From positions 175,377 through 237,224 of the forward strand of contig CAVYCR010000003.1 of the NCBI GenBank assembly GCA_963767115.1: 61,848 nucleotides of DNA, written 5' to 3'. Positions 18,617-43,256 of this stretch are shown in pieces; positions within the stretch are counted from its first letter, which is position 1, and every line of letters starts with the position of its first letter. The notes under the pieces are model-generated. The model did not search any database and was not told the DNA's origin. It worked only from the letters and a program-made list of their open reading frames with translations. This DNA is from Candidatus Kaiserbacteria bacterium (lineage in GTDB: Bacteria; Patescibacteriota; Minisyncoccia; Phycocordibacterales; UBA2100). The position numbers were made by a program, and so were the translations under genes.

Positions 18617-18705
18617 GGAGAGATGGATGAGTGGTTTAAATCAACAGTTTACTAAACTGTCGGCCCTTCAAAGGCCCGCGAGTTCGAATCTCGCTCTCTC
18701 CGCCA
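18617..18705 (+). tRNA. tRNA-Ser, class II, anticodon ACT as read (18651-18653), CCA encoded
   Basis: GGAGAGA acceptor paired with TCTCTCC, 3-bp D stem, anticodon stem ACAGT/ACTGT with loop TTACTAA, long variable arm CGGCCCTTCAAAGGCCCG, T arm CGAGTTCGAATCTCG, discriminator G. Confidence 0.85.
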
Positions 18706-24382: not shown

Positions 24383-25642
24383 TTAGCCCAACGAGTTGAA
24401 CATCTGCTCCGCAATGCGGTCGGCAGTGAGGGCTGTCTCGGAGCCAGTGTCGAGGTTCTTGAGAGTATAGCGGCCGGTGTCGCGCTCTTGGGCGCCCACG
24501 GCGATCACGAACGGTATTTTCATTTTGTCGGCCTGGCGGATCTGATCGCCGATGCGCTTGCCTGAGAAATTTACCGCGACCGCAACGTCTTCTTGACGCA
24601 AGTCTTGGGCGAGGCGCAGTGCGTGGCTCATCGCATCGTGGTCGACGACGCAGATCATGAGCTCTGTGGCTGGCGCGTATTCGGGCAAGAGCTTGTGGCT
24701 CTCGAGGAAGTCGCGCGCAGTCGCATCGCCCATGGCGAATCCTGCTGCAGGAATCGCGCTTCCTCCGAACATACTCAGGAGATTGTCGTAGCGACCGCCG
24801 CCCATGAGCGAGCGGCGATTCTCAGGAGATACATCGAAGACTTCGAAGACCATTCCGGTATAGTAATCAAATCCGCGCGTGATCTTGGTGTCGACGATCA
24901 TGTTGGCCACACCCATCTGCTGCAGGAGCATACGCAACTCTTCGAGGTACGCAGTAGAGGTCGTACGGTCGATGCGGTCAGTGAGCGCTTTGGCCGCTTC
25001 TTTATCCCCCAGCAATTCGGCAACCTTGGCATCGAAGTCATCGGCCTTCTCGCGCCGATCCAAGAGGCGCGTGATCTCCGCGCGCAGGTCTTCGGCAATA
25101 TTCATTTCGTTGTAGATGTCCTCAAGGATGCGGCGGTCGGAGACGCGGATCTCGAAATCGTGATCCTGTGCGCCGAGCGATTTCATGAGAGCGTAGGCCA
25201 TCGCGACGATCTCAGCGTCGGCCTCGATGCCACCAGTGCCGACGATGTCGGCGTTGAGCTGCCAGAACTCTCGTAAACGACCACGCTGCGGCCTTTCATA
25301 ACGAAAGAAGTTTTGCACCGAATACCAGCGCACAGGGAGCGGCAACTCACGATTCTTCGCGGCGATCATGCGCGCGACAGTCGGCGTCATCTCGGGGCGC
25401 AGCGTGACCTCGCGGTCTCCACGGTCGGTGAAGGTGTAGGTCTGCTCGTTGACGATCTCTTCGGAGGTCTTGGCGCGGTACATCTCGGCACTCTCGAGGA
25501 TCGAGGCGTTGTATTCCTCATAGCCGAAGAGCTCGCAGACGCGTTCCCAATGCTCGAAGATATAGCGCTGCACGTATTGGTCCTCAGGGTAAAAATCACG
25601 TACCCCTTTGTAGGGCTCCGTCGACAATGAGTCTCGCTTCAT
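24383..25642 (-). CDS. hisS: Histidyl-tRNA synthetase
   Basis: GVRDFYPED, class II motifs (RYERPQRGRLREFWQ; GGGRYD) and a C-terminal anticodon-binding domain. Start set at ATG 25642 (MKRDSLSTEPYKG...). The listed 74-aa extension looks non-coding. Confidence 0.92.
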   Translation of the reverse strand: MKRDSLSTEPYKGVRDFYPEDQYVQRYIFEHWERVCELFGYEEYNASILESAEMYRAKTSEEIVNEQTYTFTDRGDREVTLRPEMTPTVARMIAAKNRELPLPVRWYSVQNFFRYERPQRGRLREFWQLNADIVGTGGIEADAEIVAMAYALMKSLGAQDHDFEIRVSDRRILEDIYNEMNIAEDLRAEITRLLDRREKADDFDAKVAELLGDKEAAKALTDRIDRTTSTAYLEELRMLLQQMGVANMIVDTKITRGFDYYTGMVFEVFDVSPENRRSLMGGGRYDNLLSMFGGSAIPAAGFAMGDATARDFLESHKLLPEYAPATELMICVVDHDAMSHALRLAQDLRQEDVAVAVNFSGKRIGDQIRQADKMKIPFVIAVGAQERDTGRYTLKNLDTGSETALTADRIAEQMFNSLG

Positions 25643-25676
25643 AAACCTATTATGCCTGTGGTATACTCTCCTGTCC

Positions 25677-26138
25677 ATGAAGAGCAAAACAAAACCAGTT
25701 ATGAAAACCGACGTGAAAAATAACGGAGCCTCGGGAGATAAGCGGTTCACCGTGCGCCGCACGCCCGGCCGCGGCATGGGACTCTTTACCAACGTGCCCT
25801 TCAAGCGCGGCGATTTCGTCATCGAATACACCGGCGAGAAAATCCCGACCAAGGTGGCTGACACCTTGGAGACGCGCTATCTCTTCGAGATCGACGAGAA
25901 TTGGACGATCGACGGCAAGGAGCGCGGCAATATCGCGCGATACATCAATCATTCGTGCGGTCCCAATTGCGAATCTGAGATCACCGACGACGACCGCATC
26001 GTGATCAACGCTATAAAGGCCATCAAGCCCGGCGAAGAGCTTACGTATGATTACGGCGACGAATATTTCGACGAATTCTTGCGCCCCGAAGGCTGTCGTT
26101 GTGGTTCACCCAAGTGCAAGGCACCTGCCAAGAAGTAG
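25677..26138 (+). CDS. SET-domain protein (putative protein-lysine methyltransferase)
   Basis: RGMGLFTNVPFKRGDFVIEYTGEKI, NIARYINHSCGPNCE, ELTYDYG and a post-SET CRCGSPKC. Confidence 0.85.
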   Translation: MKSKTKPVMKTDVKNNGASGDKRFTVRRTPGRGMGLFTNVPFKRGDFVIEYTGEKIPTKVADTLETRYLFEIDENWTIDGKERGNIARYINHSCGPNCESEITDDDRIVINAIKAIKPGEELTYDYGDEYFDEFLRPEGCRCGSPKCKAPAKK

Positions 26139-26143
26139 CCGAT

Positions 26144-26265
26144 TGGCCCCGGAAAGGGATTCTTAATTTTTACGACCGAGGACCGAACCCGCAGACGCGC
26201 TTGCGCGTCGTGAGGGCGCTTGCGTCCCGCAGGGCGTAAAAATTAAGAATCCCTTTCCGGGGCCA
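26144..26265. repeat. 122-bp element closed by a perfect 31-bp inverted repeat
   Basis: TGGCCCCGGAAAGGGATTCTTAATTTTTACG (26144-26174) is the exact reverse complement of 26235-26265, with a 60-nt GC-rich spacer. It lies between the SET and VIT genes. Confidence 0.9.
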
Positions 26266-26287
26266 TCGAAATGCTATAATTAAGCAT

Positions 26288-26791
26288 ATGGACAATGCCT
26301 ATCGCCCGTCCGAAGGAGGCCGTTCGGATATATCATTCCTGCTTCAAGTCGTGCAGCCGGGCCTTGCCGGCCTTATGGACGGCTCGGTCTCAACGCTCGC
26401 ACCGATCTTCGCGGCGGCCTTCGCTACACATAGCTCGCACACCACTTTCCTCATCGGCCTCTCGGCGGCAGTCGGCGCCGGCATCTCAATGGCCTTCGCC
26501 GAAGCACTCTCCGACAGCGGCGAGGAGACCGGCCGTGGGCACCCGATGCGCCGCGGAGCGATCATCGGCTCAATGACCTTCGTCGGCGGCATCTTTCACA
26601 CACTGCCCTTCCTCATCACCAATATCACTTCCGCGCTCACGCTCGCCTACCTCATCGTCGGCATCGAGCTCATCACGATCGCGTACCTGCGCCAGCATTT
26701 CTTCAAGATGCGCTTCTGGCTCTCTATCGTGCAAGTAGTCGTCGGCGGCCTACTCGTCGTCGGCGCAGGTCTTCTCATCGGTGCCTCGTAG
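26288..26791 (+). CDS. VIT1/CCC1-family (iron/manganese transporter-like) membrane protein
   Basis: GLMDGSVSTLAPIFAAA, GAGISMAFAEALSDSGE and C-terminal TM helices. Confidence 0.75.
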   Translation: MDNAYRPSEGGRSDISFLLQVVQPGLAGLMDGSVSTLAPIFAAAFATHSSHTTFLIGLSAAVGAGISMAFAEALSDSGEETGRGHPMRRGAIIGSMTFVGGIFHTLPFLITNITSALTLAYLIVGIELITIAYLRQHFFKMRFWLSIVQVVVGGLLVVGAGLLIGAS

Positions 26792-26796
26792 AGACG

Positions 26797-26916
26797 TTGG
26801 ACGAACCGGAAGATTTTGTCGTTTTGGGGTCTTTGCAGCGCGGCGGCGCGAAACAGAGTTCTTTTCTAGCAAGAAAAGAACGACCCCAAAAGGGCAAAAT
26901 CTTCCGGTTCGTCCAA
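26797..26916 (+). repeat. Nested long-hairpin element, copy A (shares a 33-nt core with 43294-43421)
   Basis: A 22-bp outer stem (26797-26818 / 26895-26916) plus a 10-bp inner stem (TTTTGGGGTC / GACCCCAAAA). Core GGGGTCTTTGCAGCGCGGCGGCGCGAAACAGAG at 26826-26858. Inner 9-bp hairpin GTTCTTTTC-TAGCAA-GAAAAGAAC. Confidence 0.9.
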
Positions 26917-26956
26917 ATATTTTTACCTGCAAAATTTTGTGATAAAATCTCCTCTC

Positions 26957-27535
26957 ATGCGCGTGATCACCTTCGACATCGAAACGGCCAATTGGATCAC
27001 CGACACAGGCAGCAACGATCCCGCGGATCTTACGATCGCGATCGTTTGTACTCACGACTCGGAGACCGGCGAATACTCGAGTTATTTGGAAAACGAATTA
27101 CCGAAACTCTGGCCCGTCATCGAGCGCGCCGACGCGCTCCTCGGTTACAACTCCGATCATTTCGATATTCCCCTTCTCAACAAATACTATCCGGGCGACC
27201 TCACCAAGATCAAAAGCATCGACCTCATGAAGGAAGTACACGCAGTGCTCGGCCGCCGGCTCAAGCTCGACGCGCTTGCCGAAGGCACGCTCTCCGACAA
27301 GAAGCTCGACGGCAAGGGTGGACAGTCCGTCGTGTGGTGGCGCAACGGCGAGGTGGAAAAGGTGCGCGAATACTGCATCAAGGACGTCGAGCTCACACGC
27401 AAGCTCTTCGACTACGCGCTAAAAAACAACTCGCTCAAGTACAAAGAGCTCGGGCAGACACGCGAGATCAAGCTTGATACGCGAGAATGGATGCAGCCCC
27501 AGAGCGCACCGATGACCTTCTCGATGGGGTTTTAA
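26957..27535 (+). CDS. RNase H-fold 3'-5' exonuclease-like protein
   Basis: MRVITFDIETA (ExoI DxE), LGYNSDHFDIPLL (ExoII) and YCIKDVELT (ExoIII Yx3D). Confidence 0.7.
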   Translation: MRVITFDIETANWITDTGSNDPADLTIAIVCTHDSETGEYSSYLENELPKLWPVIERADALLGYNSDHFDIPLLNKYYPGDLTKIKSIDLMKEVHAVLGRRLKLDALAEGTLSDKKLDGKGGQSVVWWRNGEVEKVREYCIKDVELTRKLFDYALKNNSLKYKELGQTREIKLDTREWMQPQSAPMTFSMGF

Positions 27536-27573
27536 AAGCCTCGCACGCGTGCTAAAGTAGTGCAGACAAAATT

Positions 27574-27649
27574 GCTTGGGTAGCTCAGTTGGTAGAGCAT
27601 TCCCCTGAAGAGGGAAGGGTCGCCGGTTCGATCCCGGCCCCAAGCACCA
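27574..27649 (+). tRNA. tRNA-Phe (GAA), CCA encoded
   Basis: GCTTGGG/CCCAAGC acceptor, TAGCTCAGTTGGTAGAGCA D arm, anticodon loop CTGAAGA, GGTTCGATCCC T arm. Confidence 0.95.
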
Positions 27650-27652
27650 AAA

Positions 27653-27988
27653 TTACGGTTGAGTCGAAGTAGCGGTAGTAGAAGACAGGTGCAAGGCGCT
27701 CTTGAATTGCTCTTCGAGCGTTTGCATCGTGTTTTCAAAGCTCACAAATTTGGTCTGTGCACTCGAAGAGACTCCCTGGGCACGATTGAGCGCATTGAGG
27801 AGACTGTCGACATCGGAGCTGATATAGGTCATATAAAACCAGATCGGCGCGGCGAAGAGTACTGCATAGACGATAAATTTGAGGAAGCCGAGCAGGAAGG
27901 CGTTGCGCCGCTGCCGGTGGATCATGTCGTTGGTCTCGCGCGTGAGGCGCAGGATCTCTTGGAGCATTTTCGTATTGTTAGGATCCAT
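27653..27988 (-). CDS. Small membrane protein, hypothetical
   Basis: 111 aa with one central TM (FLLGFLKFIVYAVLFAAPIWFYM). Coding potential is plausible. I recognise no family. Confidence 0.5.
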   Translation of the reverse strand: MDPNNTKMLQEILRLTRETNDMIHRQRRNAFLLGFLKFIVYAVLFAAPIWFYMTYISSDVDSLLNALNRAQGVSSSAQTKFVSFENTMQTLEEQFKSALHLSSTTATSTQP

Positions 27989-28177
27989 ATGACAATTATA
28001 CTGTATAAAATCCCGATAATTTACATAGGATTGAATAATCTAGGCGACTTCATGATCACATTGCGGACTTTTGACAAAAATTATAATTATGCTAATATAT
28101 CTAACGGAGCATTTGTGACGTGATGTTGCAAATGTGTTCCTAGGTCGGGCGTGATGCTCGTCTGAAAATGCGGCGTG

Positions 28178-28621
28178 ATGTCGCACGGAGCCAGTACGAT
28201 GACACACTCAAATGTTGACGCTATCTACGCCGAGTATCCGTTTCTTTCGAAGTTATGGACTCGCAATGACGTCTGTGATGCAAAGGTGCGGCGATGGGAC
28301 AACGACTTTCTTCAACTCTGCACAACCAACGTTTATCTGCTTGATGAGCACGGTGAAGTAATAGTAAAACCGAATCGCTTTCTGTATGAACTTGCCAAAG
28401 TAATCCTCTATGCATTGATTCTGCGAAGGGTCGGTGAATCGGTGGATGATATGCTCAAAGGCCTCGGTGACGAAAAACTGCGCCGAGTAAATTACGCAGT
28501 GACTTTTTATTCAGGTGAAGGGACTATCACTTTATGGAAAATCCCTAAAGGCCATAAAAACGCTGCTGAATGGCTCGGGTCAAACTGTGCAAAAGCTCGT
28601 GCTACATTTTGTCAACAATAA
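28178..28621 (+). CDS. Hypothetical protein (147 aa)
   Basis: ORF preceded by TTGACA (28070-28075), a 16-nt spacer, and TAATAT (28092-28097). Followed by terminator 28647-28671. Confidence 0.5.
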   Translation: MSHGASTMTHSNVDAIYAEYPFLSKLWTRNDVCDAKVRRWDNDFLQLCTTNVYLLDEHGEVIVKPNRFLYELAKVILYALILRRVGESVDDMLKGLGDEKLRRVNYAVTFYSGEGTITLWKIPKGHKNAAEWLGSNCAKARATFCQQ

Positions 28622-28646
28622 TAATCGATTCGTAAAATTTCCTGAT

Positions 28647-28671
28647 CCCGCCATTGTATGGCGGGTTTTTT
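28647..28671 (+). terminator. Intrinsic terminator
   Basis: CCCGCC-ATTGTAT-GGCGGG followed by TTTTTT. Confidence 0.75.
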
Positions 28672-28787
28672 CATTTATTTCACTAGAGGGTGCCCTCTCA
28701 CGGTAGCGCACCCACCAGGTGAGGCAACACAATGGTTTTCCGGCGACCTTCAATCGTGTGTCGCCGAGGCCTCACGGTCACCTGCAA

Positions 28788-29150
28788 AATGGGACAAATG
28801 GGACACTACATGCGTGTACTGGAAAGTGTCCCGTTTTCTGAGTTCCAGCAAGCACCGTAAGGATATCTGAGCAATTTCAAGAGCGAGATGAGTGCCCTGT
28901 CCGATGTCCCACGGATGCGAACTGAAAAATGGACAAATCGGACACAGAAATCGGACGTGTGACTGTCCGATTTCTTGAGTGGAATGTTACAAATGTTACA
29001 TCTTTTTGGCATTTTCCGGGATGTAACATTAGGGGCAAAACCGAACAAACCGAACACGAAAACACGGGTTCGGGGTGTCCGATTTCTGTTCGCAAATGAG
29101 ACCAATGAGACCTATTTGGGCACTTTTCGGGGTCTCATTATCAATGCTCC
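28788..29150. repeat. ORF-free array of five hairpin modules (tandem 9-mer pair plus a downstream inverted copy); four modules are exactly 56 bp apart
   Basis: 9-mer pairs: AATGGGACA x2 (28788), AATGGACA/AATCGGACA (28928), AATGTTACA x2 (28983), AACCGAACA x2 (29039), AATGAGACC x2 (29095). Matching inverted copies: GTGTCCC (28826), GTCCGATTTCT (28965), GATGTAACATT (29020), GTTCGG (29068), GGTCTCATT (29131). Confidence 0.85.
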
Positions 29151-29229
29151 CGAGGCAAATGATATAAAATGTAACGCCAAAATGGGATTTTAGAGACGTT
29201 GCATTCCGAGACGTATGCTTGATCTTCGA

Positions 29230-30492
29230 TCAGCCCGGACAGGAAGGTTCGTATTGCTTGTCTTCAAATTTTATCCACCTTCCGAGGGGATCCTGCCAGA
29301 GAAATACTGGGTGGCTCTTAACGAAAGATTCCGGTAGCGAAGAAGTGGCGCTGTAGTCAAAATAGAACTGGGTATAGGCGTTGCGTAGAAGAGGAGAATT
29401 AGGATCGGCAGGTTCATAGACAGTATCTCCTGTAGAAGTTTTACCAGTTGCCACCAAGTCGCTCATGCTTATTCCTTGTTGCACGGATACAAAGTCGATG
29501 GGCTCTCCACAACTATCGGCTGTTGCGTCGTACGGAGCGTAACTTTTTGTATTGGCCGTTCCGTCGTTCCATGTGATTGCTGGTATTGATGTGGAGGCAT
29601 CGTAAAACGGTATTTCGATGCTATATATACGCATGGTGCCGTTGGGAGCGATTGCAAAATACCCATTCGTAGGCACAGTATTTGCGTTGATGCCAGAAAT
29701 ATCTGTATATACCTGCCCAATACCTGCTGCTGAAAATACAGGCTTCATCTCCGAAGCGTAATTCGCAAAAAATGGGCTGCTATATTCCTGTGCGATACCG
29801 TTAAAGTGCGTATTAGTACCTTGAAGTGTAAAGTCACCCTGCCCATACGCGAAATTGTCGGGGAATAACAGACTCGGTATAGTCAAATTCAAATCCGCAG
29901 TAAACTTCGAAGTATCGAGATAAAAGGGATCATCCGAATTATTTTCTAAAAATACCAGACCGCCGGTCTGCTGTTGAATAAAGTAATATACCGCACTGCC
30001 CCAACCAATGGAGTAATTCCATCCGGCTCCACTGGTAGGCGTTACCATAATCAACATGCCCCCAGCATATTGGCCAGAATTTATCACGCCCACCTTCCAA
30101 TAATTTGCTTGAACGACCAAATCGTTCGGATGACCGTATTTGGTATCCTGGGCTGTTCCATGTACAAACAAATCTAAATCCGTCATTTGTTGGGGGGAAT
30201 TCCAAATAATATCTCCTACAGTTGTGGTCGCAGAGCCCTGAACGCTGACCAAGGCGGAGGTAGACGCCGTTGTAGTCGAAGAAGTCGTCGAGTTGTTGCT
30301 GGATATATTTGTGCCCAAAGTCACCATCGGGATGACATGCAGCCTGTATGCAAAAACGCTTGCTGTTGCGAGAGCGATCATTATCACAAATATGGAAACC
30401 GCGATCAGAAGTCCTCTGTGGTTTTTTGTTGGTGTAGATGGCGAAGCCATCGGTGGCTGCGTCAGATTTTGCTGTTCTTGTGAAGGCGGCAT
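29230..30492 (-). CDS. Membrane-anchored extracellular protein, unknown function (420 aa)
   Basis: N-terminal TM (GLLIAVSIFVIMIALATASVFAY), then a Ser/Thr-rich linker and a large beta-rich-looking domain. I recognise no family. Confidence 0.6.
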   Translation of the reverse strand: MPPSQEQQNLTQPPMASPSTPTKNHRGLLIAVSIFVIMIALATASVFAYRLHVIPMVTLGTNISSNNSTTSSTTTASTSALVSVQGSATTTVGDIIWNSPQQMTDLDLFVHGTAQDTKYGHPNDLVVQANYWKVGVINSGQYAGGMLIMVTPTSGAGWNYSIGWGSAVYYFIQQQTGGLVFLENNSDDPFYLDTSKFTADLNLTIPSLLFPDNFAYGQGDFTLQGTNTHFNGIAQEYSSPFFANYASEMKPVFSAAGIGQVYTDISGINANTVPTNGYFAIAPNGTMRIYSIEIPFYDASTSIPAITWNDGTANTKSYAPYDATADSCGEPIDFVSVQQGISMSDLVATGKTSTGDTVYEPADPNSPLLRNAYTQFYFDYSATSSLPESFVKSHPVFLWQDPLGRWIKFEDKQYEPSCPG

Positions 30493-30628
30493 AGATGCCC
30501 TAAGTGTAGCAGTTTCAAGGCATTTCTGAACTCGGTTACCAACAGCTTGCCAACTGAAGGCTCCTGGACTCCCAGCCCCATTGCGTCATCCCTGTACCTG
30601 TCGAATTAGTCAGGTAACAAGATGAAAT

Positions 30629-31963
30629 ATGGAAGCACATATAGCAGAAGGGTTGGCACAGATGGGTGTCGCCGCGCCCGAAGAGCAGAAAGTGGTCGAT
30701 ATCAAGTATTGTTTGTACGCACGCAAGAGCACCGAGGATGACGAGCATCAGGCGCTCAGTATTGAGTCGCAGATCAAGGAGATGGCTGCGCTCGCGGCGA
30801 GAGAAAAGTTGGATGTGGTTGAAGTGCGCTCGGAGAAGCACTCGGCTAAGGCCGCAGGTCAGCGACCAGTGTTCCAACAATTACTGGCAGACGTGCGTGA
30901 GGGAAAGTTCAACGGCATCCTTACCTGGGCACCTGACAGGTTGAGTAGAAATGGAGGCGACCTCGGCGTGTTGGTCGATCTCATGGACCAAAAATCGTTG
31001 GTCGAAATCAGAACGTACACGCAGAAATTTACCAATAATCCCAATGAAAAGTTTCTGCTGATGATACTCGGCAGCCAAGCTAAACTTGAAAACGACAACA
31101 AAAGCCTCAACGTAAAGCGCGGATTGAAGGCTCGCGCTGAGATGGGACTCTGGCCCGGCATCGCGCCGACAGGATATCTCAATGACAATCGGAGCGATCA
31201 CAAATGCGAAATCCTTGTCGATCCGATTCGCTCGTCGGTAGTGAAGCAGATATTCGAAAAGGTTGGGCGCGACCGGATGAGCGGTAGAAAAGTGTACGCA
31301 TGGTTGAAATATGAAATCCGATTTACCCATCGCTCCAGCAAACCGCTTAGTTTGAGCAATGTGTATAACGTACTCAAAAATCCCTTCTACTGCGGTATGT
31401 TCGAATATCCGCGCGGGGGTGGTCAGTGGTACACCGGCAAGCACACGCCACTCATCACCAAAGAGCTCTTCCAGCTGGTGCAGGAAAAAATTGCAGAGGA
31501 GAATCGGCCCAAGAAGAAGTTCCAGGACTTCACCTTCACCAAGCTCATGACGTGCGGATACTGCGGTTCCGGTATCACCGCGCAGGAAAAGTCCAAAACC
31601 ATCAAATCAGATGGCTCCGTACGTTGGTATATCTACTACAGCTGCGACAAGTTCAAAGATCACCACTGCAAGAATCCGTTCATTCGCGAGGACAATTTGG
31701 TCATGCTACTGCTCGAACTGATTGATCAGATCTCAATCGATGAAATCGGGGCGCGGCATCTCATCGAGCTGGAGGTACAGCGATACAACCAGCTGCGAGC
31801 CGCGATGGGTCATACCGATAAAGACAAGGCGAGAGATATGGACGTGAGAAAATATGCAAAATACCTCTTGCAGCACGGCGCATCAACAGAAAAGCGTGAA
31901 TTGTTGCAGCATCTCCGCAACCGTATCGTGATGAAAGACAAGAAAATATTTCTCGAAAGTTGA
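30629..31963 (+). CDS. Large serine recombinase (resolvase/invertase catalytic domain + recombinase domain + zinc ribbon)
   Basis: [22 protein letters not shown] (catalytic Ser region), [12 protein letters not shown], a central recombinase domain, CGYCGSGIT...[12 protein letters not shown] zinc ribbon, and a coiled-coil tail. Confidence 0.88.
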
Positions 31964-32083
31964 CCGACACGAAAACGTCGAGCGATTTGCTCGGCGTTTT
32001 CGCGTCTCGACCCCTCTCGGTTGCGAACCGGCCTCGATGAGTTTTGAGGCCTCATGGACGCATGAATGGGCTGCTGACTGCTG

Positions 32084-32155
32084 TGCCCGCGGTAGGAATC
32101 GAACCTACATCTATCCCTTAGGACGGGAGTGCTCTATCCATTGAGCTACGAGGGC
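32084..32155 (-). tRNA. tRNA-Arg (CCT), no encoded CCA, with non-canonical pairs
   Basis: Reverse complement is GCCCTCGTAGCTCAATGGATAGAGCACTCCCGTCCTAAGGGATAGATGTAGGTTCGATTCCTACCGCGGGCA. Anticodon loop GTCCTAA. There is a T5-C68 mismatch in the acceptor stem and C27-T43 in the anticodon stem. Confidence 0.75.
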
Positions 32156-32227
32156 TATAAAACCGCAGCGCAAAACAGCGCATATGCAGCTTAGCATATG
32201 CGCTGTTGCCCCTGAAGGTGCAGCCAC

Positions 32228-32476
32228 TTAGGCAATCGCGAGCAATTTGCGGAGCTTCAGCTCGTCGAAGCCGAGGACGAACTCGTCGCCGACGTAGATC
32301 TGCGGGACGCCCATGTTGCCGCTCTTCTCGATCATGTGCTGGCGCTCGGTAGCGTTTGCGGCTACATCGACGTCGGTAAAGGCGACATGGTGCTCGGTGA
32401 AGAAATCCTTCGCCGCGTGGCAGAAGTGGCATGAAGGGGTCGAATAAATGGTGACCTGCGGTTGTGAAGTAGGCAT
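32228..32476 (-). CDS. Glutaredoxin/NrdH-like thioredoxin-fold protein
   Basis: 82 aa, VTIYSTPSCHFCHAAKDFF (CxxC) and GVPQIYVGDEFVLGFD. Confidence 0.85.
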   Translation of the reverse strand: MPTSQPQVTIYSTPSCHFCHAAKDFFTEHHVAFTDVDVAANATERQHMIEKSGNMGVPQIYVGDEFVLGFDELKLRKLLAIA

Positions 32477-32578
32477 AGTATGTAGTGCTTTATATTGTAA
32501 AGTGCCATCATTATAGCACAGGCGCTAGAAACGCAAGCTTCACTTCCCAATCATACGGGCGCTGGTATACTTTGCCTC

Positions 32579-33217
32579 ATGAAAATCACGAAACTGGGCC
32601 ATTGCTGCCTGCTCTTACAAAACGACGGCGTAACCATCATGACCGACCCGGGCAATTACTCGATCGAGGCGCAAGAAAGCCAGATCGGCATCGACCTCAT
32701 CGTCATTACCCACGAACACCAAGACCATTTCCATATCGATTCGGTCAAGAAGTTGCTCGGTACCAATCCGCAGGCCGTGGTGGTGACCAACAGCGCGGTC
32801 GGCAAACTTCTCGAAGCACAAGGTATTGCCGCGACCATCGTCGGCGACGGACAGAGCGCGGAGGTCAAAGGCGTGAAGATAGAAGGCTTCGGCAAGGAGC
32901 ACGCACGGATCTACGCCGATATGGGCAACGTCGAGAACACCGGTTATCTACTCAATGAGAAATTCTACTTCCCTGGCGACAACTTCCATCAACCCGGCAA
33001 ACCGGTCGACATTCTCGCACTCCCCGTCGCGGGCCCGTGGCTCAAGGTCAGCGAGACGATCGACTTCGCCAAAGCAGTCAAGGCACGCGTGGCCTTCGGC
33101 GTACACGACGCCATGATCATCCCCGCCTTCAGACCGTTCGTCGGCATGTTGATGAAAAGCTTCGTGCCCGATACGGAATATGTCTCGCTCCAAGACGGCG
33201 AAAACCGGGAATTGTAA
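32579..33217 (+). CDS. MBL-fold metallo-hydrolase
   Basis: ITHEHQDHFH (HxHxDH motif), 212 aa. Confidence 0.8.
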   Translation: MKITKLGHCCLLLQNDGVTIMTDPGNYSIEAQESQIGIDLIVITHEHQDHFHIDSVKKLLGTNPQAVVVTNSAVGKLLEAQGIAATIVGDGQSAEVKGVKIEGFGKEHARIYADMGNVENTGYLLNEKFYFPGDNFHQPGKPVDILALPVAGPWLKVSETIDFAKAVKARVAFGVHDAMIIPAFRPFVGMLMKSFVPDTEYVSLQDGENREL

Positions 33218-33285
33218 AACATTGACTATCTGTTAAATACGGGTTATAAATGATTTAGGAGTATGGGACTCCCGAGGAGTTCGTT

Positions 33286-33702
33286 ATGGGTGTCGCGAGG
33301 AAGACAATCCCTGTCACTATCTTGGAATTATTGCTTACGGAAACGATTCTGAGAGACGCAAGCCCGGGAGAGACGCTTTTTGTCTTGGCCGCAAAACCTG
33401 CGCGCTTCATAGATTTCTGCAGCATACAGTGCGGCGGCGACCCAAACCAGCTTGCGGTCCTCCGTAGAAGTGAGCAGGAATGGCTTGTTTCAGTCCCCTC
33501 TCTGCGCGCTTTCATAGAGCAAACCGCCGATATTGTCGTCAGTGATTTCGACGAAAAATATTATTTAAGCCGTTACGAGGATGTTGCCTCCGCAGTCCGT
33601 AGGCGGCAACCCAAGTCCGGGTTGGCACATTACTGTATGCATGGTTTTTGGGAGGGTCGCGTTTACAAGGACGGTGGTACAAGCTGGATGGAATCGCCGT
33701 AA
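33286..33702 (+). CDS. Hypothetical protein (138 aa)
   Basis: Open frame with plausible composition. C-terminal FDEKYYLSRYEDVA...SGLAHYCMHGFWEGR resembles a widespread short motif, but I cannot assign a family. Confidence 0.45.
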   Translation: MGVARKTIPVTILELLLTETILRDASPGETLFVLAAKPARFIDFCSIQCGGDPNQLAVLRRSEQEWLVSVPSLRAFIEQTADIVVSDFDEKYYLSRYEDVASAVRRRQPKSGLAHYCMHGFWEGRVYKDGGTSWMESP

Positions 33703-38503: not shown

Positions 38504-38504
38504 G

Positions 38505-42892: not shown

Positions 42893-42918
42893 AAAAGAGC
42901 CCGATTAAGGGCTCTTTT
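42893..42918. terminator. Bidirectional hairpin between murJ and rnpB
   Basis: AAAAGAGCCC-GATTAA-GGGCTCTTTT. Confidence 0.7.
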
Positions 42919-42921
42919 GTG

Positions 42922-43256
42922 CCTACACCATAAGCCGGATTCTGTGCTGAATTTAATCAGGGCAGTCATATATCTGGGATCGTTGTTACCAACAACCTCA
43001 AGCGGCTCTCTTGTTACCACGCGTGGTTGCAACAAGCACGGCCTTGCACGCAAGTAGGAATTTTGCCGTTGCACCTCCATGTCGCCATGGAGTTCATCCG
43101 CCGAAGGCGGAGCTCTCGCCTCTCGGCTTGAGCGTTTCTGTTCGCATCCCTGGGATTACCCCGACGGGTGTTACCCGCTACCGTTCTCCACTTTTGTGGG
43201 CGTGTCCGGACTTTCCTCTCCTCGATCACTCTCGGAGCGACTGCTTGGCGCAGAAA
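42922..43256 (-). ncRNA. rnpB: RNase P RNA (bacterial type)
   Basis: The minus strand reads ...GAGGAGAGGAAAGUCCGGACACGCC... (universal GGAAAGUCCGG P4 strand) and, near the 3' end, ...CACAGAAUCCGGCUUAUGG... (the ACAGAAnCCGGCUUA P4/P1 strand). Length is ~335 nt. Ends are approximate. Confidence 0.85.

Follow-up and report, generated by a model that had tools for sequence, protein, structure and literature searches.

Typed three-copy repeat modules in the left arm of a putative serine recombinase island from Candidatus Kaiserbacteria

Between two convergent genes of a Candidatus Kaiserbacteria contig lies an array of five repeat modules, in each of which a 9-mer occurs twice in tandem and, after a spacer, once more in inverted orientation. 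By comparing the 61,848-nucleotide stretch analyzed here (hereafter, the window) with related loci, we show that this array is the repeat-rich left (P′) arm of a predicted ~3.4-kb integrative island at the 3′ end of tRNA-Arg(CCT), one apparently mobilized by a large serine recombinase (LSR) encoded at 30629–31963. The island itself is of an ordinary kind, namely an LSR-mobilized integrative element at a tRNA 3′ end. Its repeat-bearing arm with typed three-copy modules is not ordinary and appears to be undescribed.

The array and the island that carries it

Open reading frames (ORFs) in the gap between the stop of the plus-strand gene (28621) and that of the convergent minus-strand gene (29230) are short and overlapping, none exceeding 99 aa, which bears out a preliminary description of the window in which these ~600 bp were held to be noncoding. 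Five modules occupy 28788–29139, each consisting of a tandem 9-mer, a spacer of 17–21 nt and an inverted 9-mer, and Tandem Repeats Finder and a repeat finder recovered the tandem 9-mers and their inverted copies where the preliminary description had placed them. On the plus strand, M1 (28788–28835; GGGACA type) has AATGGGACA twice at 28788–28805, a 21-nt spacer and TGTCCCGTT at 28827–28835. M2 (28927–28972; TGGACA/CGGACA type) has AAATGGACA/AATCGGACA at 28927–28944 and TGTCCGATT at 28964–28972, with an additional AATCGGAC inside its spacer, while in M3 (28983–29030; GTTACA type) all three copies are perfect (AATGTTACA twice at 28983–29000, TGTAACATT at 29022–29030). M4 (29039–29092; CGAACA type) carries AACCGAACA twice at 29039–29056, and the terminal, GAGAC-type module M5 (29095–29139; GAGACC type) carries AATGAGACC twice at 29095–29112 and GGTCTCATT at 29131–29139. 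All five thus follow one design, as had been proposed, with a hybrid in M4: the direct copies there are of the CGAACA type, and the inverted copy at the canonical distance (29076–29084) is the M2-type TGTCCGATT (CGGACA type), flanked by GTTCGG (29068) and TGTTCG. The recurrences of TGTCCGAT/ATCGGACA described earlier were likewise found by the repeat finder. A claimed periodicity of 56 bp held for M2–M5, whose second 9-mers start at 28936, 28992, 29048 and 29104 and which are parted by 8-nt spacers, but not for M1, which lies 139 bp upstream of M2.

To assess these matches against chance, we ran an architecture detector, a custom search for a tandem 9-mer followed by its inverted copy, over the 61.8-kb window. 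It scored 14 positions, all of them in the array region, compared to a mean of 0.47 in 30 Markov shuffles, so that the stem/inverted-copy matches far exceed chance; no further such module was detected elsewhere in the window. The region also folds much better than shuffled sequences on both strands (z = -5.1 and -5.9), although such folding is expected of any set of inverted repeats.

The island was delimited with a locus (L169) whose LSR is 89% identical to that of the window. Homology between the two begins at GGTGCCC(T/C)CTCACGGTAGCGCACC (window 28688), spans the 5′ domain that precedes the modules and the modules themselves, breaks at unrelated cargo, resumes 83 bp upstream of the LSR gene (covering leader and LSR at 30546–31958) and ends at ...CTGCTGTGC / ...GGGCTGCTGACTGCTGTGC (window 32087). 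Beyond this point the tRNAs differ, the right-hand neighbor being tRNA-Arg(CCT) in the window and tRNA-Val(CAC) in L169, and the flanks, like the cargo, are unrelated. A GTGCCC direct repeat stands at both ends, at 28689–28694 and 32083–32088, the right copy being the tRNA 3′ terminus. Given these homology limits, the differing flanks and the GTGCCC at both ends, the island measures ~3.4 kb (window ~28689–32088), and the array lies 95–450 bp inside its left end. Excision would join 32088 to 28689 in a circle and would leave an empty site reading ...CACTAGAGG-GTGCCC-GCGGTAGG...; a crossover within M1 or the tRNA T-loop had also been considered, and was dropped in favor of the GTGCCC junction after the comparison with L169.

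Within these limits, the island reads GTGCCC, 5′ domain, M1, partial 5′ domain, M2–M5, cargo (minus strand), LSR leader, LSR, hairpin, copy B and GTGCCC/tRNA; unless stated otherwise, the parts described below are given on the plus strand. The last host sequence before the island is the intrinsic terminator of the upstream host gene (28199–28621), at 28647–28665, with an 8-bp stem of which 6 pairs are GC and a T-run; homology to L169 starts only downstream of it. The left GTGCCC copy (28689–28694) is the probable attL crossover core, since the L169 homology starts there and the hexamer equals the tRNA-Arg 3′ end. The 5′ domain (28689–28787), delimited by an nhmmer match and a 50-sequence alignment, contains a tRNA-3′-end-like GGTGCCCTCTCACGGTAGCGCACC, an (A/G)TAAGG..TTTT-like spacer and a second GGTC box, CACGGTCACC, ~20 nt before M1. 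A partial second 5′ domain (GTAAGG ... TGTCCGATGTCCCA ... GGATGCG; 28836–28926) aligns, together with M1, to positions 545–788 of the reverse complement of L169. Single 9-mer-like remnants (AAAATGTAAC, AAAATGGGA and AGAGAC) lie at 29166–29200, between the array and the cargo gene.

That cargo gene (29230–30492, minus strand) converges on the array and encodes a 420-aa protein with an N-terminal membrane anchor and a Ser/Thr-rich linker, for which no family match was found. It is replaced by unrelated DNA in L169 and has one distant homologue, in an unrelated context. Next comes the LSR leader (GGTTACCAAC ... ATTGCGTCAT ... ATG; 30544–30628), whose boxes also stand upstream of homologous LSRs in L023, L046, L098 and L169. 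The LSR (30629–31963; 444 aa) matches the Pfam families Resolvase, Recombinase and Zn_ribbon_recom as well as the phrog_95 integrase (E = 7e-70), and directly 3′ of its stop is a long, terminator-like inverted repeat (31965–32009). The right arm, copy B (32008–32082), repeats the 5′ domain directly but in shortened form (CTCTCGGTTGCGAACC ... GAGGCCTCATGGACGCATG AATGGGCTG); it is 83% identical to L169 and ends at the integration target, tRNA-Arg(CCT) (32083–32155, minus strand), whose 3′-terminal GGGCAC is GTGCCC on the plus strand (32083–32088). The 420-aa secreted protein and the LSR are thus the only proteins that the island encodes.

A module-bearing unit widespread in Patescibacteria

We then scanned a one-genome-per-species collection of 596 Gb with the pattern AATGNNACAAATGNNACA-N12-26-TGTNNCATT, in which the variable dinucleotide NN was not forced to agree between copies. 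Among the matches listed, there were more than 119 loci, mostly from metagenome-assembled genomes (MAGs) of Patescibacteria, the candidate phyla radiation (CPR), and AATGAGACA was the commonest 9-mer. The window belongs to the same group, its HisRS being 62–74% identical to Kaiserbacteria/Paceibacterota MAGs. By chance, ~4 matches would be expected (21 fixed bases, 15 gap lengths, 596 Gb, both strands), or at most ~25 if all DNA were AT-rich. The loci show a common unit, defined here by its sequence, of a tRNA-3′-like stretch, a conserved spacer and 1–6 putative modules of AATGNNACA-AATGNNACA, ~20 nt and TGTNNCATT. Boxes stand at fixed distances before the module, with GGTCGGGG at about -20, (A/G)TAAGG at about -67 and GGTCTAGAACC at about -95, and outside these boxes lies the tRNA-3′-end-like stretch on the opposite strand (T-loop, T-stem, acceptor and often CCA).

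An nhmmer profile built from 17 CPR units matched at least 76 genome loci and, at E = 7e-8, window positions 28695–28837, that is, the 5′ domain and M1; the window array therefore opens with a canonical unit. An independent scan of metagenomes, using a DNA pattern of the GTTACA-type module only, returned 43 loci, each with the same perfect GTTACA triple as M3, while a first metagenome pattern that joined M3 and M4 gave no match. The module architecture is thus conserved at at least 76 genome loci and 43 metagenome loci.

Several matches outside the CPR proved to be something else. Those in Lachnospiraceae were set aside as a conserved coding stretch, and those in Dehalococcoidia (L005, L029 and L107, from one chromosome) belong to a different element of ~240 bp (AATGTCACA twice, N12, TGTGACATT), present in at least three places of one genome in copies 89–92% identical. 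Other features again were found in Paludibacteraceae (L019 and L108: three direct AATGCAACA, N17 and two inverted TGTTGCATT) and in the phage contig L130, where the match is an iteron-rich intergenic region. The viral contigs L130 and L132 show that 9-mer sets of similar style occur outside the CPR, the phage intergenic region being rich in AATGTTACA in both orientations. Ten loci (L015, L020, L030, L044, L046, L058, L070, L071, L075 and L093) carry a full CPR-type unit, some with an LSR, in MAGs labeled Gammaproteobacteria, Bdellovibrionales or Rhizobiaceae, which suggests that these contigs were mis-binned or mislabeled.

To characterize the neighborhood, we clustered the ORFs on both sides of 76 units from the matches listed. 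Genes on the module side encode ParB-N/DNA-methylase fusions (9 loci), small-terminase-like proteins, S24/LexA-type repressors, type I restriction subunits and LSRs, along with a large-terminase-like protein assigned by sequence motifs and without a Pfam match; the opposite side holds ordinary host genes. Since mobile or prophage genes stand on one side and host genes on the other, the unit sits where host and element meet, and its modules lie toward the element. Varied defense-like cargo genes converge on the module, among them genes for reverse transcriptases and for NERD-, OLD- and Fic-like proteins, all judged by reading their sequences, and the left ends of these islands look like putative defense-gene hot spots. 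In L037 and L117, also judged by sequence, reverse transcriptases with a YxDD motif (retron or defense type) are encoded just past the module, and UvrD-like proteins elsewhere. A separate repeat system is seen in a CPR prophage (L103, 2900–3060, minus strand), where four copies of TTTCCTAAC precede the consensus TTGACA-N17-TATAAT promoter of a TerS-like/TerL operon.

The link to the LSR recurs as well. Window-homologous LSRs were found near the module in 21 of the 133 first-set loci (among the matches listed), and the window LSR is 48–66% identical, over nearly its full length, to module-adjacent LSRs in 17 genome and 19 metagenome loci. Among the 43 metagenome loci, 24 encode an LSR, and in 19 a window-family LSR lies downstream in the same orientation, 111–4889 bp away. 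The smallest elements consist of the unit with its modules, the LSR leader and the LSR, and nothing more; a convergent cargo gene separates the modules from the LSR leader in the window, L026 and L033. The plan recurs at tRNA-Arg or tRNA-Ser in L026, L106 and L111, and tandem stacks of islands are among these cases. The stack in L026 (700–5305) comprises a first island of modules, cargo, LSR and tRNA-Arg(TCT), followed by a second 5′ domain, modules and a second tRNA-Arg(TCT), and minimal elements are found in L139 and L142, where a single GTTACA-type module lies 111 bp upstream of an LSR 49% identical to that of the window.

Other assignments of the array to a neighboring gene did not hold. 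We rejected an LSR promoter or operator, as the LSR keeps its own conserved leader when cargo parts it from the array, and likewise a leader or riboswitch of the upstream minus-strand gene, as such genes are unrelated across loci. A linkage to the 420-aa or 140-aa neighbors was also rejected, their few homologues occurring in unrelated contexts without arrays.

Module variation and candidate readings of the array

We analyzed 158 distinct modules. The finder itself had fixed 9-mer positions 1 and 8; positions 2–4, 7 and 9 were near-invariant though free or only loosely fixed, and variation was concentrated at positions 5–6. The flanks AATG..ACA are common to all modules, while NN differs between modules and is conserved within each. 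The recurring types are GAGACA, GTTACA, GGGACA, CGGACA, CGAACA, GGAACA and a few others, and in ~37 of 53 arrays the last module is of the GAGAC type. Start-to-start spacing has its mode at 53–58 bp, and the spacer between inverted 9-mers at 20–21 nt. At variable positions the three copies agreed in 117 of 185 cases, compared to a shuffled mean of 18 and maximum of 30, a figure somewhat inflated because part of the set had been selected for a perfect GTTACA triple. Position 9 changes jointly in all copies, being mostly ACA/TGT, but ACC/GGT in the window and ACT/AGT in L051 and L138. Where the two direct copies differ, the inverted copy agrees 49 times with the inner copy and 17 times with the outer.

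The same pattern is seen among close relatives. When the window was compared with L120 (80.6% identical over 217 bp) and L169, the 9-mers were almost unchanged, while spacers and linkers had strongly diverged: M1 in L169 keeps its 9-mers around an unrelated loop, and the M2 9-mers are identical in both relatives. The hybrid arrangement of M4 recurs in L169 (reverse complement ~845–853), whereas L120 has a matching TGTTCGGTT instead; the two positions at which the hybrid differs would pair as G-U or G-T on the minus strand. The M5 orthologue of L120 has GAGACA twice with TGTCTC, a concerted change in all three copies, and module order is permutable, an M4/M5-like pair preceding M2/M3 in L169. 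The T-loop/T-stem of the target tRNA, read on the plus strand (AATCGAACC; window 32098–32106, and tRNAs in L026 and L106), matches AATCGGACA and AACCGAACA at 7 of 9 positions, and the module motif may derive from, or mimic, the tRNA T-arm.

These observations bear on the earlier suggestion of selection either on structure or on a family of related binding sites: the modules are homologous units with 9-mers that differ between modules and agree within them. Of the two, the binding-site family gives the better fit, and a structured RNA was not supported. From the alignments, we infer that the 9-mers act on double-stranded DNA as putative sequence-specific protein sites and not as RNA stems. We tentatively favor, at somewhat less than an even chance, a reading of the modules as DNA-level recognition sites in the attachment arm of the island, most likely accessory or docking sites bound by the LSR. 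Of the three candidates originally put forward, namely a multihairpin noncoding RNA (ncRNA), an origin or partition site and recombinase accessory sites, the last gives the best fit to a small mobile element with an adjacent serine recombinase. The LSR is the likeliest candidate binder, since no other protein is shared by the minimal islands. Among serine recombinases, Sin and the resolvases at res sites load more than one dimer onto repeats close to the crossover. IS607-family TnpA is a further example, showing that serine recombinases can use many subterminal repeats (PMC6188088). In the modules, the inner direct and the inverted 9-mers lie at ~bp 11–19 on either side of the center (20- to 21-nt spacer). 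The 9-bp zinc-ribbon-domain (ZD) motif of serine integrases lies at bp 11–19 in attB and bp 16–24 in attP (PMC3783163), so that the module would fit the attB motif in its geometry only. On such a model, the extra tandem copy would offer a second register 9 bp further out, and the modules would load additional recombinase dimers beside the true crossover site. This loading would serve to control synapsis or directionality; alternatively, the modules would make it possible for related islands to form tandem stacks. The module type (NN) would be an address common to the three copies.

Several points weigh against this reading. Serine integrases are described as needing only 40- to 50-bp sites and no auxiliary DNA (PMC3783163). 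The mapped GTGCCC junctions lie ~95 bp from the first module, so that the modules are not the crossover site, and the two-copy side of each module faces the host, whereas a simple P-type half-site would show the reverse orientation. It is hardly plausible that one recombinase reads the five or six NN types of an array, although every type is conserved, with the three-copy agreement given above. A single binder accounts less well for the joint change at position 9 than do pairing or trans-acting, type-specific proteins, and the combination of three-copy identity with a small recurring set of types is left unexplained by the model alone. The difficulty of a single recombinase reading five NN types lends some weight to both alternatives, type-specific proteins in trans and recognition by pairing.

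One of them, to which we give distinctly less weight, is that the modules are sites for proteins supplied in trans by coresident prophages of the same family, such as a small terminase (pac-like), a CI/LexA-like repressor or an excisionase-like factor. Each type would then match one phage lineage, and small islands would carry a panel of types to exploit or sense helpers in the manner of satellites. Prophages with genes for ParB-methylase, TerS-like and TerL-like proteins (the latter by motifs only, without a Pfam match) and S24 repressors do have the unit at their left end, while mini-islands keep the modules and lack those genes; a small alphabet of types with within-module agreement is what lineage-specific DNA-binding proteins would produce, and multitype arrays are common in small LSR elements. 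However, most prophage units are of the GAGACA type across several phyla, which implies little diversity of specificity among putative helpers, and the packaging operon of L103 comes with a separate promoter and with another repeat (TTTCCTAAC). We identified no cognate protein, and the island is without the replication or capsid-related genes usual in satellites. Far less probable still is an iteron role for the array, as the origin of replication or the partition site of the island in its excised, circular form. Short repeats, both tandem and inverted, do flank an A/T-rich 20-nt spacer in several adjacent sets, like initiator-specific iteron sets, but the minimal islands encode no initiator, ParA/ParB or helicase, the 9-mers are unlike a DnaA box, and the repeats differ between modules of one element. 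With the secreted protein and the recombinase as its whole coding content, the window island did not bear out the origin or partition site first suggested for it.

About as unlikely as trans-acting proteins is that the modules work as folded nucleic acid, either as transcript hairpins that stop or insulate transcription coming from the convergent cargo or lysogeny operon toward the attachment site or as a processed multihairpin RNA, the duplicated arm giving two alternative pairings. Fold potential is strong on both strands, and direct/inverted concordance exceeds that of shuffles, with 7–8 double-change cells compared to 1.3 in an alignment of 42 units for either pairing register, in which two or three pairs covary, and a change at position 9 is shared by all copies. 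In many loci, moreover, a convergent gene ends 0–50 nt from a module, A-run/T-run flanks resemble bidirectional terminators, and variants with a 12-nt spacer give GC-rich, terminator-like hairpins. The stem positions are nevertheless constrained in sequence (5 of 9 stem pairs never vary in the 42-unit alignment), and the types form a small fixed alphabet and not free covariation. The 88 mismatches between inner and inverted copies comprise 52 non-wobble pairs (59%), 22 G-U on the plus strand and 14 on the minus strand, near random expectation and with no strand bias. Spacers of ~20 nt are atypical of intrinsic terminators, for which the host uses canonical ones, and a terminator has no need of a tandem second arm. 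Simple scans revealed no promoter-like site in the array. A search of the window and 18 loci against Rfam at gathering and E-value thresholds gave only a chance miRNA match (E = 0.87), and RNAalifold on both strands of the 42 units predicted only the module hairpin, with no conserved fold in the 5′ domain. With no Rfam family, wider fold or promoter-like site, with sequence-invariant stems and with mismatches mostly non-wobble, the multihairpin ncRNA of the preliminary description was not upheld. Less probable than either is that the strict identity of the three copies and the small conserved set of types mean that the modules are read by pairing and not by protein specificity, for instance as folded single-stranded DNA or RNA serving as programmable address tags of the LSR in the manner of attC or a bridge RNA; if so, the array would encode several orthogonal integration or docking addresses.

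Three narrower assignments were not borne out. A tRNA, transfer-messenger RNA or tRNA-like gene over the 5′ domain found no support, as ARAGORN detects nothing and there is neither acceptor pairing nor a conserved fold. Intrinsic terminators combine a GC-rich stem, a loop of 3–8 nt and a U-tract; the scan flagged only a small subhairpin in M4, and module spacers run to 17–21 nt. A small ORF (MxQMxH...) starting in the 9-mers has a frame that is not conserved, with in-frame stops in some loci and spacers of varying length.

Comparison with known systems and other features of the window

The preliminary description knew of no described element class with this design. This stands, in that our full-text literature searches returned no account of the module design or of CPR LSR attachment arms, but the design is not unique to this genome and forms a class widespread in CPR bacteria. 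Phage and plasmid records gave no blastn similarity. The closest likeness is partial in each case. With serine-integrase att sites (phiC31, Bxb1, A118/LI), the island shares an adjoining LSR gene and short direct repeats at a tRNA 3′ end, and its module is a ~38- to 48-bp imperfect palindrome with a 9-bp motif ~11–19 bp from the center, as for the attB ZD motif (PMC3783163). It differs in that the host/element junctions lie outside the modules, ~95 bp from M1 and not at a site center, and in having 1–6 modules, each with an extra tandem copy and a varying central dinucleotide. Several direct and inverted short repeats by a crossover site at the element end are also a feature of res (Tn3/gamma-delta), Sin and the IS607 repeats (PMC6188088). 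Those accessory arrays repeat one motif, whereas here each module has its own NN between common AATG..ACA flanks, and the enzyme has a 444-aa LSR architecture, matched only weakly and below threshold by the IS607 TnpA and YneB models. A possible likeness of the 9-mers to the gamma-delta resolvase half-site consensus was set aside and did not serve as evidence.

The arms of lambda-type attP (P′1–P′3, X1–X2) hold the arm-type and Xis sites of tyrosine integrases. They resemble the array in their tandem repeats at ~9- to 11-bp spacing, which stand in the phage arm some tens to hundreds of bp away from the core, and in a tRNA-type att site; the minimal islands, however, have neither a tyrosine integrase nor Xis, and the module motifs are type-specific and have an inverted partner. 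Integron attC sites are alike in forming an array of ~50- to 60-bp sites with conserved outer triplets, a variable self-complementary center and structure-like concordance. Here, in contrast, there is no IntI and there are no cassettes between sites, and the boxes read AATG..ACA, not RYYYAAC/GTTRRRY; a tandem second arm is not an attC feature either. The initiator-specific iterons of geminivirus and rolling-circle origins share two tandem repeats and one inverted, with a core that varies by lineage and is consistent within a set, but the island has no Rep gene or nonanucleotide hairpin, and one element carries several different sets. A CRISPR array was rejected, since here it is the repeated arms that change from one unit to the next, with a spacer conserved in part; a Pfam scan of the ORFs in window 24383–33702 gave no cas-like family. 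Type III toxin–antitoxin RNA repeats (ToxI-like) were rejected because the arms differ between units and no toxin-like family was detected among the neighbors.

These LSR islands and prophages form a large family of wide phylogenetic range, in which a conserved typed module is always present in the attachment arm and small elements often have several types. Serine integrases are valued for genome engineering for their short sites, which require no auxiliary DNA. The module arm challenges this simple-site picture and points to a further level, undescribed for these enzymes, at which sites are recognized, directionality is controlled or islands are stacked in tandem. Mobile elements of the CPR are hard to delimit, and the signature of AATGNNACA twice, N20 and TGTNNCATT by a tRNA-3′-like stretch is a practical marker for prophage and island borders and for defense-type cargo in CPR genomes. 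Were the module types true orthogonal addresses, they would provide a ready-made set of specific docking sites.

Elsewhere in the window, tRNA-Phe(GAA) (27574–27649) is followed by two orphan plus-strand genes (27659–28123 and 28199–28621) with no family match and very few homologues, and the stretch 27574–28621 may represent another small islet at a tRNA 3′ end, immediately to the left of the LSR island. Besides tRNA-Arg at 32083, further tRNA genes are tRNA-Ser at 18617 and tRNA-Gly at 38504. Bacterial RNase P RNA of class A lies at 42916–43256 on the minus strand (114.9 bits), and a SET-domain protein (25677–26138; Pfam E = 5e-26) is encoded beside HisRS in this small CPR genome.

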